Shown piece by piece: positions 1 through 50,661 of a stretch of 50,661 bases of DNA. The stretch is from Shigella phage Shfl1, in sequence record HM035024; one strand, 5' to 3'. A program made the translations under genes and the position numbers. Position 1 is the stretch's first letter; every line of letters begins with the position of its first letter. The notes under the pieces are model-generated. The model ran no database searches. It was not told the origin of the DNA and saw nothing but the letters and a program-made list of their open reading frames with translations.

Positions 1-46
1 AGAGGGAGGATCTGGTGTTACCCGGTTCGCCTGGTAGTCATCTCCA

Positions 47-66
47 TTTTTAGCAAAAAGTGCTAT
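47..66 (-). promoter_or_regulatory. conserved promoter-associated motif (reverse orientation), directed out of the window
   Basis: Reverse complement reads ATAGCACTTTTTGCTAAAAA. Confidence 0.4.
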
Positions 67-170
67 CGATTACACTTTAACTTGTCACGACTGTAATATT
101 TGTCTAGAATCGCCATTGTGACAAAATTACACACTGTGACGCCTCTAAATATACATATAGATATATGTAT

Positions 171-187
171 CTATATAATATATATAG
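171..187. repeat. 17-bp AT-rich palindromic element CTATATAATATATATAG (copy 1)
   Basis: Identical 17-mer also at 31230-31246. Confidence 0.85.
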
Positions 188-469
188 TGTTTTTTTTATT
201 TATATATATAGATAATTATATTGTAACAGCTGTGTATAGCTGTCTTACATTGTCTAGCGTACTGTTGGCATATTTCTATCTGCATGTTTATATATACAGT
301 ACTTTTTTGGGAGCTATATATTTCTATAGTGACTCTATACAGCTAGACAAATGTTACACGGCTTAAAATTGGCTCTCAGGCGTTGACGTATCTGCATTGC
401 GCTGTCACAATGGCAATTGTTGACACGTTATGACACCATTTACACACGAATAGACAAAGAGGTTATATT

Positions 470-1074: not shown

Positions 1075-1269
1075 ATGGAAACGCAAATTGACGTAGTGGT
1101 TGTTCAGCGAGACTCAACTCATGAAAAGGGTCTGTTCAAGAAAGGAACCGAAATCACGATCGACCTTGAAGATATGGTTGCGTATCACTCGGGTCTTACC
1201 TGGAACGTAGTGCGCGTTGGTAGCGACTACAAACTCAAAGGCTTTAACACTTACTTTGCAGAGGCTTAA
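1075..1269 (+). CDS. hypothetical protein (64 aa)
   Basis: ORF preceded by conserved motif, -10-like hexamer and GAGGAA RBS. Confidence 0.5.
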   Translation: METQIDVVVVQRDSTHEKGLFKKGTEITIDLEDMVAYHSGLTWNVVRVGSDYKLKGFNTYFAEA

Positions 1270-16410: not shown

Positions 16411-16429
16411 CATAAAAACACTTTGACGC

Positions 16430-16447
16430 TTTAACAAAAAGTGCTAT
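16430..16447 (-). promoter_or_regulatory. conserved motif, reverse orientation, adjacent to terminator
   Basis: Plus strand reads TTTAACAAAAAGTGCTAT. Confidence 0.3.
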
Positions 16448-20194: not shown

Positions 20195-20213
20195 TTTTAA
20201 CAAAAAGTGCTAT
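20195..20213 (-). promoter_or_regulatory. conserved motif, reverse orientation, upstream of tail assembly chaperone
   Basis: Plus strand reads TTTTAACAAAAAGTGCTAT, directly followed by CAACCAATCAGGAGAAC leader. Confidence 0.3.
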
Positions 20214-29880: not shown

Positions 29881-30843
29881 ATACATGTTTGGAGTGAAAG
29901 GAATTGGCATTGAAATGTTTATATTGAAGGGGAATCGCGCTCCGCTTTGGGTGGAATAGTTACCTACTCTTGTTCCGGGGGCGCTTCTCACGTTACCGCC
30001 ACTCATACACACGCCCTTGTATCGAATGTTATTATATCCACCTGTAACTCTGCATATTGTACCAGTTCTAAGTATTGGGAAAAATCCACCGCACCACTGC
30101 CACCCGTCATTTATCGCCATAGTCCCGCCGAGAACAAAAGGACGTCGAACGATTGAGAAAACAATCTGACCAGCAGGATTGCTCATAGTGATTCCAGGGC
30201 CGGGAGGTGGTGGGGTGTTATTAAATATTACGAGTTGAACGTATACGCTCGCGCCAACGTCATCAATACCGTTATAGTTTGCGTCTCTGCACCATATTGT
30301 ATTCCCGTCAGATTCAAGTGTTACATTTGGGTTATCCCACATACCGAAAGGAACACCCTGGACTGGCAACTGAGCCTGACCGTTAACCTGGATGCCTCCA
30401 ACAAATGCCGCACTCATCAACCTGGCGTTATTCGGTATCGCCGCGAAGTTCGTTGAATCGCTAACAAGCATCCCCTGATTTCCAGCCTGGGCGGGGAGAA
30501 TTTCGTAACAGTTGCCGTAAAACCTCATCCTTCTTCCACCATGACCGTTAAAATTACCTACCGTTATTCTCCCGGTTGAATCATTAACCTTCTGAAAGCT
30601 GGTTAAATAATACACCTCCGGGATATAATCCATGTCGTCTATGTAGATAGCCTGAGATGGAAGGCAAAAAGCGGTAGATCCTGGACTCATTTGCAGACCA
30701 AAATCAAAAACCGATCCAGATGAATCAACCCCGTCCGCTTGTATTGGTCCGCACCATGAAGGGGCGCGAAGTCCAGAGGTTATCTCCATTGCCGGACGAC
30801 CGTCATTTAGGTTTATGTATATTCCTTGTCCCATAATTACCAC
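29878..30843 (-). CDS. putative receptor-binding protein
   Basis: 321 aa Gly/Asn-rich protein convergent on gpJ-like gene and co-transcribed with a small lipoprotein, an arrangement like T5 pb5-llp; no catalytic motif. Confidence 0.35.
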   Translation of the reverse strand: MVIMGQGIYINLNDGRPAMEITSGLRAPSWCGPIQADGVDSSGSVFDFGLQMSPGSTAFCLPSQAIYIDDMDYIPEVYYLTSFQKVNDSTGRITVGNFNGHGGRRMRFYGNCYEILPAQAGNQGMLVSDSTNFAAIPNNARLMSAAFVGGIQVNGQAQLPVQGVPFGMWDNPNVTLESDGNTIWCRDANYNGIDDVGASVYVQLVIFNNTPPPPGPGITMSNPAGQIVFSIVRRPFVLGGTMAINDGWQWCGGFFPILRTGTICRVTGGYNNIRYKGVCMSGGNVRSAPGTRVGNYSTQSGARFPFNINISMPIPFTPNMY

Positions 30844-31067
30844 TCTTTGGTTTTGATTGATACCTTACCGCTGAAGTTACCCTGATCGTCGTCGGATGAC
30901 AGACCTTTGAATCGCATATCTATTTCTCCAGCCGGAACCTTCTTGCCGTCAACGAATCGCATCATGCAAGATCCGTAAGTGTAAGTAACGCAGTCTCCAT
31001 TTTTAAGATTCTGAGCGCAACCAGTCAGGATGAATGCAGCAGTAATAATGGCGATTAACTTTTTCAT
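30837..31067 (-). CDS. small lipoprotein, putative superinfection-exclusion factor (Cor/Llp-like)
   Basis: Signal peptide MKKLIAIITAAFILTGC with lipobox LTGC; start trimmed to internal ATG 31067 (GAGGA RBS); adjacent to putative receptor-binding protein. Confidence 0.45.
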   Translation of the reverse strand: MKKLIAIITAAFILTGCAQNLKNGDCVTYTYGSCMMRFVDGKKVPAGEIDMRFKGLSSDDDQGNFSGKVSIKTKEW

Positions 31068-31124
31068 TTGTATGTCCTCGTCTTTAGTGTGATTGCATTG
31101 TATGTCGCATTTACTTTTATTGCA

Positions 31125-31140
31125 ATAGCACGATTGCAAT
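31125..31140. promoter_or_regulatory. palindromic motif variant ATAGCACGATTGCAAT in divergent intergenic region
   Basis: Near-perfect palindrome TTGCAATAGCACGATTGCAA. Confidence 0.3.
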
Positions 31141-31146
31141 TTTTTA

Positions 31147-31320
31147 GTGTAACAGGTGTCTATTTTTGTAACCGTAACGGGTGTTACAAAATACACCACA
31201 TCCGATCGCAGAGGGATATGATAAAAACTCTATATAATATATATAGATAGATAATATTTAATTTTAGCTTTATATATATAATTATTGCTGTGTAACAGTT
31301 GTCTATCGTGTAACAGGTGA
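31147..31320. repeat. iteron-like repeats GTGTAACAG(G/T)TGTCTAT
   Basis: Copies at 31147-31163, 31290-31306, partial 31308-31320; inverted half-sites TGTTACA (31414) and ATAGACACC (31432); palindrome TGTAAC-N10-GTTACA at 31167-31188. Confidence 0.7.
31230..31246. repeat. 17-bp AT-rich palindromic element CTATATAATATATATAG (copy 2)
   Basis: Identical to 171-187. Confidence 0.85.
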
Positions 31321-31480
31321 TTTTATTGATTCGTCAAATTTCTATCATATATGTTCAAAATTTAATCAATATTGATTCTATTCATGGATATCTGTGTATT
31401 TCTAAGAAAATGCTGTTACAAGTATTACACAATAGACACCACATAAAAACAGTGCTAAGCTATTGATTACGTTGACACTG

Positions 31481-31515
31481 GTTGTAACTTGAGCGATATA
31501 GACACGCAATTACAC
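31481..31515 (+). promoter_or_regulatory. candidate sigma70-type promoter for exonuclease/erf/ssb operon
   Basis: TTGACA (31481-31486), 17-nt spacer, GATATA; overlaps a TGTAAC iteron half-site. Confidence 0.35.
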
Positions 31516-31593
31516 GCCAATTACATGTATTCGATTGACTAAACGCCGTTAATGGCTATAATGGATTCATCGTAAACGAAGGAGATAAACGCA

Positions 31594-32658
31594 ATGTTCC
31601 AAGTATTCACATCAAGTCAGCTTTCTAATGACGAGTATCATAGTAACGAAGGTTGGGCGGCAGAGTATGTAAGCGGATCGAGCCTTGCAGAAATCTACCA
31701 AACTTGCCCGGCTAACTGGCGATTCAAGAAGAATGAGACAACGAAAGCGCTTGAGTTTGGCACTCAGTCGCATACTAACTTTGAGAGTCGTGATCTGTTT
31801 ACTGCAACGTATGCACGTTGTCCGGCTCCGTCAGAGTTCAAGGATCTGATTACGTCACAAGCCGCACTGGCTGCAAAATTAAAATCTTTCGGCCTGAAAG
31901 GTACATCCGGCAAGCAATACCCGGACCTCATCAAAATGATGATTGATTGCGGTGAAGAACTCAACGTTCAGTATCTGATCGAACTGATCGCAGAAGCAGA
32001 GGCGCGTGCTGAAGGAAAGCAATTGGTTGACGCTGACAAATACGACGCCTGCATGAAGATGAGGGCGATCCTTGAGCAAAATCCGGATCACGAAGCATGC
32101 ATCAATAGCGAGACGGCTCAGCGTGAGATCTCAATCTTCGGTGAGATATCCGGCGTCAAAGTTAAGGTTCGTCTTGACCATCTGGACTACAAAGAGAATG
32201 TTCCAGGTCGTGTGCTGACTGGTTATGATGAGAGCGGCGATCCGGTATTTGAAGACGTTATTTTCCCTGAAGCGCTAATTATCACTGACTTCAAAACCAC
32301 GATGAGCGCTAACCCGTTAGAGTTCCCGAGACTGGCATACAATCACGGGTATTATCTTAAAATGGCCTTGCAGCATGACCTGCTACGACGTGCAATCCAG
32401 GCTGGCGCTTTTGAAGGAAACTTTCCGGAAGATATCCCGATCGTAGTTCGATTGCTTGCGCAGGAGAAAAAAGAGCCTTACATCGCACTTGCTTACCGTA
32501 TGACTATGGAGCAAATCAGGATCGGGCGCAGTCAGTACATTAGCGTAGTCCACACTTACAAGGCTTGCTCTGAAATGGATGTTTGGCCTGGATACGCTGG
32601 CGATGCAAGCGAGATTGAACTTGAAACGCCGTCATGGGTACGCTACCAAAACAAGTAA
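31594..32658 (+). CDS. putative PD-(D/E)XK exonuclease (RecE-like)
   Basis: 354 aa; D..E..K-like segments VRLDHLDYKE and IITDFKTT; immediately upstream of Erf and SSB genes. Confidence 0.45.
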   Translation: MFQVFTSSQLSNDEYHSNEGWAAEYVSGSSLAEIYQTCPANWRFKKNETTKALEFGTQSHTNFESRDLFTATYARCPAPSEFKDLITSQAALAAKLKSFGLKGTSGKQYPDLIKMMIDCGEELNVQYLIELIAEAEARAEGKQLVDADKYDACMKMRAILEQNPDHEACINSETAQREISIFGEISGVKVKVRLDHLDYKENVPGRVLTGYDESGDPVFEDVIFPEALIITDFKTTMSANPLEFPRLAYNHGYYLKMALQHDLLRRAIQAGAFEGNFPEDIPIVVRLLAQEKKEPYIALAYRMTMEQIRIGRSQYISVVHTYKACSEMDVWPGYAGDASEIELETPSWVRYQNK

Positions 32659-36746: not shown

Positions 36747-36766
36747 GTTTTAACTAAAAATGCTAT
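36747..36766 (-). promoter_or_regulatory. conserved motif (minus orientation) overlapping 3' end of HTH regulator gene
   Basis: Reverse complement reads ATAGCATTTTTAGTTAAAAC. Confidence 0.4.
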
Positions 36767-37202
36767 TGGTCGTCCCGATATCTTCCTTCTTCACCACTCG
36801 CATAAACTTCTTGTTCTTGCATCGCTTCTCTAGGCACTTGCCGTTACCGTCAAACTTGAGGTCGAATCGCAACCATGCGGCGCGGAATCCTTTACAACCC
36901 TGACGACGGTAAGCACGATGTGCAGCTTCAGCACCTTGCCACGAAATCATGTTGCGCTCCTTCCATCCCTGCACGGTCTGATTGCTAACTTTCAGAGCCT
37001 TTGCGCAGGCCGCAGGGCCGCCATAATATTCGATAAGAGCATCAAGTCTCGCTCTCAGTCCGGCGCGTGTTTCTTCTTTATGGATATAGAAACCGCAGCG
37101 TTGGCGTGGCTTTTTATCTTTACCGCGTCTCGTTCCGTTGTTACCATTGATGTGACGTTTATCGATTTCACCAGTTGACTCTGCGATGCGTTGCATATTC
37201 AT
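36750..37202 (-). CDS. putative HTH DNA-binding regulator (Cro/YdaS-like)
   Basis: GGPAACAKALKVSNQTVQGWKERNMISWQ resembles Cro/YdaS-type helix-turn-helix; basic N-terminus; start trimmed to ATG 37202 (AGGAG RBS). Confidence 0.4.
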   Translation of the reverse strand: MNMQRIAESTGEIDKRHINGNNGTRRGKDKKPRQRCGFYIHKEETRAGLRARLDALIEYYGGPAACAKALKVSNQTVQGWKERNMISWQGAEAAHRAYRRQGCKGFRAAWLRFDLKFDGNGKCLEKRCKNKKFMRVVKKEDIGTTNSIFS

Positions 37203-44744: not shown

Positions 44745-46313
44745 TTAACCCATCAGTCGAGGATTGATGAAAACAATATCATCAATACGGCAAGTGTAAT
44801 TCATCTCTTCGAGCGTAATCAGAAGGCTGTCGATTCGCTCAGATACTTTCTGTTGACCGTTGAACGGCGTAACGTTCCGGCACTTTGCAACAATACTATG
44901 AATAGGTGCGCGCCCTTTGTTCTTCTTTGCGATCTCAGTGATAACATCAATCAGCTTACGAGATTCAGCCTCATCACCAGCATACCCGGCAGCGCTGGCA
45001 GACGACAGATAAGTCCTGGAAAGCTCATTGAAGATCATGATCGCTTCCTGCATTGTTTCAAGGTCAATCTCACGGTTGGAACGGTTCGGTGATTCACCCT
45101 CCCAATTCTTGATCGTGTGTAGAACTGAAGCAATACGCAAAGCGTGCTTATCGAACTTGCCGAGATGACCGCGAAGCATTGAGTGAGAGTATTTTCCCCC
45201 GGCGGCGAAATCAGGCTCCATCGCCTGGCGTGCAAGGTTTAATTCACGCATAGCATTACGGCTCACAGAGAGAACAACGTTGTCCTCCTTCATGATGTTG
45301 TGCACGAGTCTGTAATATTTGCTAACCAGTCCGCGATCGACTTCTTTATACAGTGCATCACCATTTTCATCACAAAGAATACGAGTACCTAAAAGCGGTT
45401 CCTCTCGAACCAGGAGGAAACGCTCAGATACACCGATACCGCGCTGTCCTGCGTCCATGATACCCTTGATTGTTTCATCCTGAGCAATTACGCAGATTGA
45501 ACCGACCGGGCATAGAGACAAGTTATTATCCTGGTTGGAACGCGCGACCTCCATATGGTTTTTATCCCACGCCTTAAGGATAAGCTCACTGTTAGATTTC
45601 TTATCTGAACCGCCATACGTAAGCCCGAGCAATGTATTGATTGCCGTTGCCTCGTCAGATATTACGGAAAAGTGACCTTGCACTGCCGCCACTTTCGCAA
45701 GACCTTCAGGTGTAGGATCTGATACCGCGAAAACAATATCAGCCATCTTCTTGATCTTCTCTTCCAGTTTTTCTTTGTCCTCGTACAGTGCCGCAGTCGT
45801 GTTGCCTTTAGGATCATTCTTGATTTCCTTCTCAACCTGGCGTAGCTGACTGGTTAAACGGATACGTTCCTTTTTGCGCTCTTCATTCAGTCGCTGAATC
45901 TCCGCACGCATAGGTGTAATCGCCGCTGAGTTAATCGCTGACTTACCTGTTGATGGTGGCTGGCTGATTACCATGTAAAGCGCGGTCGGCTGTTCCTCTC
46001 CGTGATATTGCACCCAAAACTTCCCGAGCATCGCGGCTGAGATGCAACCGATAAAATGAGCATACGCGGATGAAACCGGGAACTGGACTGATTCAGCTTT
46101 TGCTTTTGCATATTCGAATACCAGGTTATCACCACCTAACGAAATCAGAGGGAACTTATCGTTTCCGCTGTTGATATCGATCGGATCTTGCCAAAAAGAA
46201 ACTGAATCCCCGTAACTGTTTTCACGAATTGCGATCGCCACCGGATTCACTCCAGTGCTATTTGCGATCTCAATAATTTGTTGGTAATTCAGTTTTGGCT
46301 TAATGTTAAACAT
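44745..46313 (-). CDS. P-loop NTPase (DUF3987-like, putative replication ATPase)
   Basis: Walker A ISQPPSTGKSA; Walker-B-like VISDEA; start trimmed to ATG 46313 (AAGGAG RBS). Confidence 0.5.
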   Translation of the reverse strand: MFNIKPKLNYQQIIEIANSTGVNPVAIAIRENSYGDSVSFWQDPIDINSGNDKFPLISLGGDNLVFEYAKAKAESVQFPVSSAYAHFIGCISAAMLGKFWVQYHGEEQPTALYMVISQPPSTGKSAINSAAITPMRAEIQRLNEERKKERIRLTSQLRQVEKEIKNDPKGNTTAALYEDKEKLEEKIKKMADIVFAVSDPTPEGLAKVAAVQGHFSVISDEATAINTLLGLTYGGSDKKSNSELILKAWDKNHMEVARSNQDNNLSLCPVGSICVIAQDETIKGIMDAGQRGIGVSERFLLVREEPLLGTRILCDENGDALYKEVDRGLVSKYYRLVHNIMKEDNVVLSVSRNAMRELNLARQAMEPDFAAGGKYSHSMLRGHLGKFDKHALRIASVLHTIKNWEGESPNRSNREIDLETMQEAIMIFNELSRTYLSSASAAGYAGDEAESRKLIDVITEIAKKNKGRAPIHSIVAKCRNVTPFNGQQKVSERIDSLLITLEEMNYTCRIDDIVFINPRLMG

Positions 46314-46368
46314 CACAATAAACTCCTTAGTTGACGGTGTGAATGATACACCGCCAATGTTACACGCG

Positions 46369-46386
46369 TTTTGCAAAAAGTGCTAT
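46369..46386 (-). promoter_or_regulatory. conserved motif (minus orientation) upstream of P-loop ATPase gene
   Basis: Reverse complement ATAGCACTTTTTGCAAAA; hairpin GGTGT...ACACC with TATCAT downstream. Confidence 0.45.
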
Positions 46387-49548: not shown

Positions 49549-50236
49549 TTGCGATTGCTTTGAAAAATCCACGCGGCGACAGCGATCGTATCAACTTCGT
49601 TTTGGCAGACTTGCCGCCCAGCTTGTTATGCTGTGCAGAGTACCCGTCAGGAAGGTTTACAGGTTTTCTCTCCGGCATGACAAAATCGTCCGAGGTCCAA
49701 AGGCACGTCTTTTTCGGGTAAGCATCGCGCGGCGCAATATACATAGGGAACCAGGGATGTGAGTCATTCTCAGGAAGGTAGCCGCCATACTCCCAGGGAT
49801 TGAATGAGTGATCTGGTTTTCTCCAGGCAGATGACAGGACGCTAACCGGATTCTCAATGATGTAGGTCACGCCCAGGGCATCGCCAATATTCGCAGCAAT
49901 CCGTGCGGTTGCAACAGCCTTCTCCTGGAATAACGGATCGCGCTCACGCTTACTTGCAAAGTGCGCGGCACCACTAACAGCCAGGTCGGTGCATGGAGGA
50001 AATGCCATGATGAAATCTGGCTTGCCATACACACCCGCGATCGCATCACGTTCGAACTTCTCATCAATGAAGACGTTCACATACTCAATATTCGGATGCT
50101 CTACCCGGGCGTTGTACTTTGCATAATCTCCGTGATCGGCCCCGTCAAAGTTGAAGCACATTACCTTATGACCTCGCTTAGCCAGTTCATGACCAGCAAG
50201 GCCGGAGCCATCGAATAATGACCAGATTAATTTCAT
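49532..50236 (-). CDS. C5-cytosine-methyltransferase-like protein (short, divergent)
   Basis: Motif-I-like LFDGSGLAG, motif-IV-like FPPCTDLAVSG (Pro-Cys but Thr in place of Gln), motif-VI-like IIENPV; only 234 aa. Confidence 0.4.
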   Translation of the reverse strand: MKLIWSLFDGSGLAGHELAKRGHKVMCFNFDGADHGDYAKYNARVEHPNIEYVNVFIDEKFERDAIAGVYGKPDFIMAFPPCTDLAVSGAAHFASKRERDPLFQEKAVATARIAANIGDALGVTYIIENPVSVLSSAWRKPDHSFNPWEYGGYLPENDSHPWFPMYIAPRDAYPKKTCLWTSDDFVMPERKPVNLPDGYSAQHNKLGGKSAKTKLIRSLSPRGFFKAIANSTFC

Positions 50237-50445
50237 TTCGTTACCTCCTTGAATACCGTTTTTCCGTCATTGGTCAGGAATCGATCCCACCCATTCATTG
50301 AACGGAAAACGCCGATTTGATTTTGATGATTGTCAGTCGCAAAGTAACCGCCATCAATAAGGTAGATCTCATATACTGATTGATTCGTGAAGCTGTCGGT
50401 GCTGACGCTAATGCATCGCACAGCACATTCAAATTCTGGTTCCAT
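50233..50445 (-). CDS. hypothetical protein (70 aa)
   Basis: ORF preceded by conserved leader CAACCAATCAGAGGAAT. Confidence 0.45.
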   Translation of the reverse strand: MEPEFECAVRCISVSTDSFTNQSVYEIYLIDGGYFATDNHQNQIGVFRSMNGWDRFLTNDGKTVFKEVTK

Positions 50446-50504
50446 TGCATGATTCCTCTGATTGGTTGATGTGATGAATCATACCCTGCCAACATGGATA
50501 AGTC

Positions 50505-50522
50505 GTTAGCAAAAAATGCTAT
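50505..50522 (-). promoter_or_regulatory. conserved motif (minus orientation)
   Basis: Reverse complement ATAGCATTTTTTGCTAAC; TATGAT downstream on minus strand. Confidence 0.4.
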
Positions 50523-50661
50523 TCCAATAGTTGCTCATTATTCCATCAATACTGGAATAGTTGGAATAATTTTGATTGTGATTGATTGCGAATGATGAAA
50601 CGTGATTATTGCATGATGTGCAACAGTTGTTTGATTTGTTGCTGAGATTGCAATGATTGTG

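Follow-up and report, generated by a model that had tools for sequence, protein, structure and literature searches.

Paired modules of phased repeats and an unstable AT-rich core in the T1-like Shigella phage Shfl1: candidate replication origins

The Bacillus phage SPP1 has two replication origins, oriL and oriR, which are bound by one phage protein (PMC6316719), and the Vibrio phage ICP1 has two origins that are used at different times and were found by read-depth profiling (PMC7145576). In a textbook origin design, initiator sites in helical phase are combined with an AT-rich unwinding element and a site for IHF, and winged-helix initiator domains contact about 3 bases (PMC4980987). The alpha protein of the satellite phage P4 is a primase-helicase with a C-terminal winged-helix domain (domain order in PMC2777425). 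No replication origin of a T1-like phage was identified in the literature searched, including PMC11447400. The window analysed here (HM035024, 50,661 bp) is the complete genome of Shigella phage Shfl1, a T1-like coliphage (Drexlerviridae, Tunavirinae, Tunavirus). Sequence comparison indicates that two of its intergenic regions, one at the conventional genome start and one upstream of recE, each hold a paralogous cis-acting module, of a kind that is conserved throughout the T1-like family. These modules may be replication-origin-like sites, a reading to which we assign a probability of roughly 40%. Paired modules of this kind had no prior description in the literature searched (T1-like origin, transcriptome and OmpR motif), a search whose reach did not extend to the original T1 genome paper.

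Bases 1-469 form the right-hand portion of a single intergenic region of approximately 685 bp (50446..50661 joined to 1..469; region J, for junction). This region is bounded by the minus-strand right-end cluster, of which the final gene lies at 50233-50445, and by the first plus-strand gene, gp1 (470-985). A sequence-only reading of the window had regarded 1-469 as non-coding and, if the genome is permuted, as abutting the right-end cluster, and both proposals are borne out. The open reading frame at 100-366 encodes a low-complexity product rich in Ile, Tyr, Phe and Leu, and neither its frame nor its length is kept in relatives (42-98 codons), which rules out a coding role. Bases 1-469 abut the right-end minus-strand cluster because the genome end runs into the genome start in differently permuted relatives (SA30RD is identical at 27 of 30 bases spanning the junction, and the alignment extends over 780 bp). 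The second region, M (31071-31593), separates a minus-strand cor-type lipoprotein gene (with a lipoprotein Pfam match) from recE on the plus strand. Gene order is the same as in T1, TLS and Rtp. Bases 1-1500 matched 70 phage records (80-96% identity) and bases 30800-31900 matched 68.

The sequence-only reading had paired these regions on the basis of a shared 17-mer and related repeats. The 17-mer, CTATATAATATATATAG, is present at 171-187 and 31230-31246 and has no third site on either strand; the identity in fact extends to 18 bases (170-187 = 31229-31246). Likewise, TTGTAACAGCTGTGTATAGCTGTC is found at 221-244, with its relatives GTGTAACAGGTGTCTAT at 31147 and GTGTAACAGTTGTCTAT at 31290. Regions J and M make up 2.4% of the genome, yet they contain all 17 copies of ATATATA, all five of TGTAACAG, 8 of the 12 copies of TAGACA and 9 of the 13 copies of TGTNACA. 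A 15-bp composite repeat, TGTAAYANNTGTSTA, has five matches genome-wide (92, 222, 344 on the minus strand, 31148 and 31291), all of them in these two regions; 0.17 +/- 0.40 matches are expected by chance and none of 100 shuffles reached five. Local alignment of J with M scores 55 (dinucleotide shuffles: 24.5 +/- 3.2; z about 9). The semi-global score is 81 (shuffles: 37.5 +/- 5.2) compared to 50 against the reverse complement, so the modules are collinear in one orientation only. In first-order Markov simulations, an exact word of at least 18 bases was shared by the two cores, each of 9% G+C, in 0.36% of cases (0/2000 for the whole regions), and a common word of at least 12 bases arose between the cores in 22%. 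The 18-mer alone is only moderately improbable between the cores; the evidence together is decisive.

The sequence GTGTAACAGNTGTCTAT was also sought outside the genome. In 596 Gb of bacterial genomes it has 70 scattered single matches, none of them enterobacterial and the total below a rough chance estimate. Among viral contigs, paired copies occur in T1-like phages only, and the few matches elsewhere are single. Satellite or plasmid copies are ruled out by these scattered, non-enterobacterial single matches and by the restriction of pairing to T1-like phages.

The order of parts is the same in both modules (Table 1; the module in J is labelled A). A TGT cluster with the first composite copy is followed by the TA core, the second composite copy with further TGT units, a set of inverted units and a last phased cluster at the rightward promoter. 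In each TA core a first box, which contains the 18-mer, is separated by an A/T-tract spacer from a second TA run, and direct copies of TGTAAYANNTGTSTA bracket the core (92/222 and 31148/31291). By duplex stability the two cores rank first and second among the least stable 100-bp stretches of the genome (free energy z = 5.5 and 4.9), and 40-bp windows in the core of module A rank 1 and 3 for instability. Same-strand TGT units of J and M are spaced mainly at 9-11 bp (22 pairs compared to 1.6 expected), with further peaks at 18-22 bp and a small one at 31 bp. In 11 divergent lineages the spacing peaks at 9-10 bp (73 pairs compared to 6.5 expected).

A cruciform or hairpin at the cores was considered and rejected. 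The stem within the 17-mer consists of only 7-8 bp of AT (-2.4 to -3.1 kcal/mol), neither TLS nor Rtp retains the palindrome, and the cores fold no better than shuffles (fold z-scores -0.75 and +1.1). A structured RNA was also rejected, with no Rfam match at E <= 1 in 1-600 and a single sub-threshold match at 31039-31144. Scans of J and M found no terminators.

Both modules are strongly conserved. Thirteen Tunavirus relatives are approximately 91% identical over M. Among them, 93% of columns are invariant in 31221-31348, compared to 81-82% in the flanking coding sequence and 39% in 31193-31220. The core of J (146-226) has 80% invariant columns, compared to 29% in the adjoining gp1 coding sequence, even though overall identity is only 57-62% for three of the relatives in the alignment. 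The sequence TTGTCTAGA (99-107) is invariant among relatives.

The pairing itself holds across the family. T1 carries the pair (220-309 compared to 30016-30095; score 66, shuffles 23 +/- 3). In Rtp (Braunvirinae) the two copies form a 124-bp gapless match of about 80% identity (score 141, shuffles 23 +/- 3), with units TTACGC/TTACAC every 10-11 bp and TCCGCGGAAA boxes. TLS (Tempevirinae) carries the pair with another vocabulary (TGTTCAC, TGTTCCA and AAAAAGAACAAA); the 2024 re-annotation of TLS found no iteron-like repeats anywhere in that genome (PMC11447400). The recE-upstream copy in TLS sits between two co-directional genes, with no leftward gene beside it, and the module is therefore not merely a divergent-promoter spacer. 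A further 15 Drexlerviridae genomes were compared, for each of which the sequence upstream of recE and the 7.5 kb past the DUF3987 helicase gene were both available. The pair is present in 14 of these in the same orientation (scores 50-127 compared to about 25 +/- 2.5), with the best local match falling in the junction region, 3.2-5.3 kb past the helicase gene. In the exception (L027/L215) the two regions are not clearly matched in the same orientation (score 43, compared to 62 for the reverse complement).

An alignment of 27 modules reveals a common plan: TCTATATA(A/T)TA, an A/T-rich spacer of 15-45 bp, TTATATATAT, and then two to four TGT units. The repeat sequences are lineage-specific, and copies within one genome are more alike than copies in other subfamilies. 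Because within-genome copies resemble each other most, either concerted evolution or co-evolution with a phage-encoded reader is suggested; repeats of this kind would be expected under co-evolution with a phage protein. The outer clusters appear to turn over quickly even within the genus, since the T1 junction (L054) flanks the conserved core with other tandem units, namely two copies of ATTACGCC at 11-bp spacing and three copies of GATTAACAC at 11 bp (185-210 and 395-430).

Sites for IHF are a feature of the recE-upstream copies. An IHF site is found in 29 of 41 related recE-upstream regions (3.2 +/- 1.7 in shuffles), and 13 of the 41 have an exact consensus in the interval that separates the two TA boxes of the core. 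Family consensus sites occupy two kept positions, about -142 and -321 to -354 from the recE ATG (L018-L045), in either orientation. In this phage one exact site is present in M (31456) and none in 1-469; in J a T8 tract stands where many lineages have the exact IHF consensus, in the spacer.

The features described above resemble the design of an iteron-type origin, that is, helically phased repeats that are putative initiator sites adjacent to an exceptionally unstable AT-rich stretch. The two modules can thus be read as origin-like sites comparable to SPP1 oriL/oriR. This design is suggested because phased repeats stand beside the most meltable DNA, together with a bend or IHF site, conservation, lineage-specific repeats and duplication at two loci. 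The repeats that the sequence-only reading called iterons are real; the words iteron and origin are an interpretation of them, and it is in this sense that we infer protein binding, unwinding and initiation at the modules.

The interaction might proceed in the following steps. A phage-encoded DNA-binding protein would bind the phased units cooperatively on one face of the helix, aided by a bend that may be intrinsic (the T8 tract in this phage) or IHF-induced (in other lineages). The resulting complex would melt the TA core, allowing the phage helicase and primase to load. The modules could serve as a pair of origins or, alternatively, as one origin and an auxiliary cis site.

Several points weigh against this reading. 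The units are short (9-10 bp, with only TGT invariant) compared to classical iterons of 17-22 bp. The outer clusters overlap or adjoin promoters, a location that would suit a transcription factor equally well, and they vary even among close relatives, as the ATTACGCC and GATTAACAC units of T1 illustrate. GC skew tracks gene orientation and transcription and so is uninformative on origins. The modules contain no match to the DnaA box TTATCCACA at up to one mismatch, and GATC is depleted in them; a DnaA-dependent origin, a separate candidate, is ruled out by the want of convincing boxes and by GATC being depleted rather than enriched. The case for origins rests on sequence comparison, and the winged-helix and helix-turn-helix proteins proposed as readers are guesses.

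If the modules are origins, they would be a fresh example of a known element type in a classical phage family, T1 being one of the seven classical T phages. They would be relevant to the engineering and rebooting of T1-like phages, would help to explain the fast replication of these common laboratory and fermentation contaminants, and would inform a sensible start point for genome records of the family. As family-wide, sharply defined modules they provide concrete targets with exact coordinates, and the lineage-specific repeats offer a route to the protein that reads them.

Zn-ribbon primase, SF2 helicase, DUF3987 helicase, VRR-NUC, RecE-like, Erf and SSB proteins are encoded as replication proteins by Shfl1. 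Two proteins are candidate readers of the repeats. The first is the DUF3987 helicase, for which a confident structural model (pLDDT 90) finds its best solved-structure matches in MCM2-7 subunits (E = 3e-5, TM 0.3-0.38). Such an MCM-like layout, as predicted by the model, in which the last 82 residues form a winged-helix domain, is a side observation in a coliphage. It is conceivable, albeit rather improbable, that this MCM-like AAA+ helicase reads both modules in T1 and all Drexlerviridae by its C-terminal winged helix, with one TGT unit per turn, and loads itself at the TA core. If so, a bacterial virus would provide a counterpart to origin recognition of the Orc/Cdc6-MCM or P4-alpha type, with two origins per genome. 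The second candidate is a Cro/YdaS-like helix-turn-helix protein, labelled "transcriptional regulator" in DELF2, TLS and Rtp, which presumably suits the palindromic box discussed below better than the TGT repeats. A sequence search of the PDB with the helicase, its C-terminal domain and the helix-turn-helix protein found nothing significant. A comparison of repeat sequence with the helicase winged helix across 80 loci was confounded by phylogeny and noisy anchoring, and no link was drawn from it. An 11-mer, AATGTTACACG, is common to 350-360 and 46356-46366; the latter site, one of only four TGTNACA sites outside the two modules, lies just downstream of a promoter box (46368-46386, minus strand) that precedes the DUF3987 helicase gene.

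The best-placed alternative, which is possible but tentative, is that each module controls transcription over an extended region. A regulator of phage or host origin on the phased TGT units would bend or loop the DNA across the flexible TA core and switch early promoters on or off (gp1 and the right-end cluster in one case, cor and recE in the other), and replication would start elsewhere. Promoter-like sites do lie at the module edges rather than in the cores, including in the annotation of SA30RD, and repeat clusters adjoin two of them: the units at 403-457 overlap the -10 and leader of gp1, and those at 31472-31526 are at about -40 to -100 from the recE promoter. The IHF consensus at -138/-142 upstream of recE is kept across lineages, the inverted copies (approximately 120-235 bp apart) could permit looping, and a perfect, orphan copy of a regulator-type box is present at 48-66. 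However, the most conserved part, the TA core and adjacent repeats, is 150-350 bp from mapped or predicted promoters, and the cluster position is inconsistent (downstream of the promoter at gp1 but upstream at recE). Other points that do not favor transcriptional control are the TLS copy with no leftward gene beside it, the use by most other promoters here of a different, well-defined element (a 19-nt box with a -10 hexamer 19 nt downstream) and the number of promoter-like sites in J and M, which is not enriched over shuffles.

Alternatively, the core box TCTATATAAT could be the -10 of an activator-dependent promoter, with a transcript that primes or activates replication or that is a non-coding RNA or long leader. 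Transcripts prime or activate replication at the origins of T7 and T4. TATAAT is found within the shared 18-mer, a promoter scan gives TATACA-18-TATAAT at 150-179 (10/12), and a conserved AACAAAAAGAACAAA box lies just upstream in TLS-like lineages. All six modules examined base by base (those of this phage, TLS and Rtp) retain CTATATA, as do most of the 27 aligned. Such a promoter is nevertheless unlikely: module M lacks both a -35 and a TG extension at the corresponding site, L018, L045 and the M copy of Rtp have not retained TATAAT, and there is no Rfam family match, terminator or significant fold.

A function in packaging (pac recognition) or another end-related transaction is suggested by the location of 1-469 next to the conventional genome start, where pac has been mapped in TLS and T1. 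Many T1-like records begin within about 150 bp of base 1, and the TLS record begins at its assigned pac, which falls within the corresponding intergenic region (PMC11447400). A packaging series is initiated at a single pac site (PMC11447400), but all lineages examined carry a second module upstream of recE, 31 kb away and no less conserved. Because the module is present twice per genome, pac function, which the sequence-only reading had put forward for testing, cannot account for it and is very improbable. The pac-proximal GATTG/TGATT repeats are moreover to the left of the module, in 50560-50661; repeats of this type fill that segment and likewise the equivalent pac-proximal DNA of TLS and Rtp.

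Binding of the arrays by an OmpR/PhoB-type response regulator of the host, a winged-helix protein, is at least as doubtful. The 10-bp phasing of the TGTAAC, TGTTTC and TGTTCC units is in keeping with such a protein, as TGT(A/T)(A/T)C half-sites every 10 bp are what we take to resemble OmpR sites. The repeat sequences differ among phages of the same host species, however, and the literature searched offered no support. The weakest explanation, that the similarity arose by chance between two AT-rich spacers, draws on the words shared by simulated cores and is as good as eliminated, being refuted by the shared non-TA motifs, the collinear alignment and the family-wide conservation.

The box at the left of module A requires separate discussion. 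The sequence-only reading had placed a leftward promoter at 47-66. This motif is a zero-mismatch, minus-strand copy of the 21-nt intergenic box of T1-like phages, ATAGCACNNNTTGNTAAAA (consensus in PMC11447400), but it is not a complete promoter. The TLS authors left the function of this direct repeat open (PMC11447400); bases 48-66 match aaATAGCACnnnTTGnTAAAA exactly in reverse orientation, whereas typical copies run along the direction of transcription about 76 nt before the start codon (PMC11447400). The copy at 48-66 has no -10-like hexamer at the usual 19-20 nt downstream and is therefore classed as an orphan and not as a leftward promoter; approximately 280 nt separate it from the closest leftward ATG (50445). 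By analogy with other copies of the box, the leftward promoter is more likely to be formed by the box-like sequence at 50504-50522 and its TATGAT.

There are 28 copies of the box in the genome at up to three mismatches, of which about 19 have a -10-like hexamer (often TGnTATAGT) 19-20 nt downstream, followed by a Shine-Dalgarno (SD) sequence and an ATG. The 28 copies include 1000-1018, 2897-2915, 5844, 6364, 37215 and 39725 on the plus strand and 48500 and 49530 on the minus strand. In the copies with a -10-like hexamer the palindromic core TAGCA-N5-TGCTA would sit near -42. The TTGNTA of the box is too distant to act as a -35, since 22 nt separate it from the -10. This geometry looks like that of an activator site overlapping the -35 region and suggests a class of activator-dependent promoters, as opposed to a "stoperator" or UP element. 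Some copies are opposite to the surrounding genes (16429-16447, 20195-20213 and 36748-36766 on the minus strand, 35674 on the plus strand); two of these immediately precede late genes in the late region, and one adjoins a terminator-like hairpin.

The 8-bp palindrome ATTGCAAT has five copies in the genome (31119, 31133, 50647, 6173 and 10928), three of which are in the left parts of J and M near leftward promoters. A small early gene at 1075-1269 (plus strand) has a match to Pfam PF25180, "phage antiviral trigger protein Gp54" (E = 5e-36).

Table 1. Coordinates of the two modules, their surroundings and candidate reader genes in the Shfl1 genome
Feature	Position	Strand	Remarks
Composite copy A1, TGTAATATTTGTCTA	92..106	+	Inverted partner 343-358, 94% complementary
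TA core of module A	146..221		9.2% G+C; 18-mer 170-187, T8 tract, second TA run 199-213; least stable duplex stretch of genome
Composite copy A2, TGTAACAGCTGTGTA (222-236), then TGT units at 241, 251 and 262	222..265	+	Spacing 9-11 bp
Composite copy A3, inverted, TGTAACATTTGTCTA on minus strand	344..358	-	From motif and inverted-repeat maps
Phased units TGTCACA 403, TTGACAC 420, ATGACAC 431, TTACAC 440, TAGACA 451	403-457	+	Overlap, then follow, gp1 promoter-like site
Composite copy M1, TGTAACAGGTGTCTA (31148-31162), and third phased unit TTGTAAC (31166-31172)	31148..31190	+	Inverted partner GTTACAA 31183-31189
TA core of module M	31222..31285		9.4% G+C; 18-mer 31229-31246, second TA run 31270-31281; second least stable duplex stretch
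Composite copy M2, TGTAACAGTTGTCTA (31291-31305), and further TGTAACAG at 31309	31291..31316	+	From motif map
Inverted units TGTTACA (31414), TTACAC (31425), TAGACA (31433)	31414..31438	-	About 122 bp past M2; A2-A3 distance equal
IHF core consensus WATCAANNNNTTR, exact	31456..31468	-	-138/-142 from recE ATG; position kept in other lineages
Phased units TTGACAC, TTGTAAC, TAGACAC, TTACAC, TTACAT (31472-31526), then recE promoter TTGACT-16-TATAAT (31535-31562)	31472..31562	+	Promoter annotated in SA30RD
Left part of J	50446..50661		GATTG/ATTGCAAT-type repeats (ATTGCAAT at 50647; ATTGCAA enriched) and probable leftward promoter; contiguous with base 1 in permuted relatives
Left part of M	31097..31146	-	Promoter-like TTGCAA-17-TACAAT for lipoprotein gene; two ATTGCAAT palindromes (31119, 31133)
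T1-like box, perfect copy, orphan	48..66	-	Palindromic core TAGCA-N5-TGCTA; 95% of columns invariant in relatives
Probable leftward promoter	50478..50522	-	Box-like 50504-50522 (3 mismatches), TATGAT 50478-50483 20 nt downstream, then SD and ATG at 50445
Promoter-like TTGTCA-17-TAGAAT (10/12)	82..110	+	Predicted; reads rightwards into TA core
Promoter-like TTGACG-17-CACAAT for first plus-strand gene, ATG at 470	383..411	+	Annotated as promoter in SA30RD
Candidate trans factor: DUF3987 helicase, MCM-like fold, C-terminal winged-helix domain	44745..46313	-	Putative, from structural model
Candidate trans factor: Cro/YdaS-like helix-turn-helix protein	36750..37202	-	Putative; just upstream of primase gene

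Among known systems, SPP1 is the nearest parallel to the proposed origins. Like the T1-like phages it is a lytic, pac-type siphovirus with two separated, similar sites in which direct repeats lie beside an AT-rich unwinding element (PMC6316719). One of its sites is in a long intergenic region, whereas oriL is inside gene 38 (PMC6316719). In SPP1 an exonuclease, an annealing protein and an SSB take over after origin firing, and here the second module is directly upstream of recE-erf-ssb. There is no sequence or protein homology between the two systems: SPP1 uses gp38, the gp39 loader and the DnaB-type gp40, and the T1-like phages a Zn-ribbon primase, an SF2 helicase and the DUF3987 MCM-like helicase. 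Binding and initiation are proven for SPP1, while the modules described here are known from their sequence.

P4 offers a second parallel. Its ori and crr are two separated cis regions with shared short repeated octamers, bound by the alpha protein. The T1-like phages resemble P4 in the type of their Zn-ribbon primase domain and in having a helicase that ends in a winged helix, but they divide primase and helicase between two proteins, the latter with an MCM-like and not a superfamily 3 fold. Neither the present genome nor TLS is enriched in the P4 octamer TGTTCACC, and the resemblance to it of the TGTTCAC-like units of TLS may be coincidence.

Iteron plasmids and oriC have repeated binding sites with a cooperativity dependent on helical phase, an AT-rich unwinding element with short internal repeats, an IHF site or bend, and winged-helix domains that read about 3 bases (PMC4980987), a plan to which these modules would correspond. 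They differ in that classical iterons are near-identical, whereas here only TGT is invariant in each 9-11-bp unit and the 15-bp composite occurs 3 + 2 times; in addition, DnaA boxes are absent and no Rep gene is adjacent. ICP1 is likewise a lytic phage with more than one origin, but it is no relative of the T1-like phages, and read coverage, not a shared sequence module, served to define its origins (PMC7145576).

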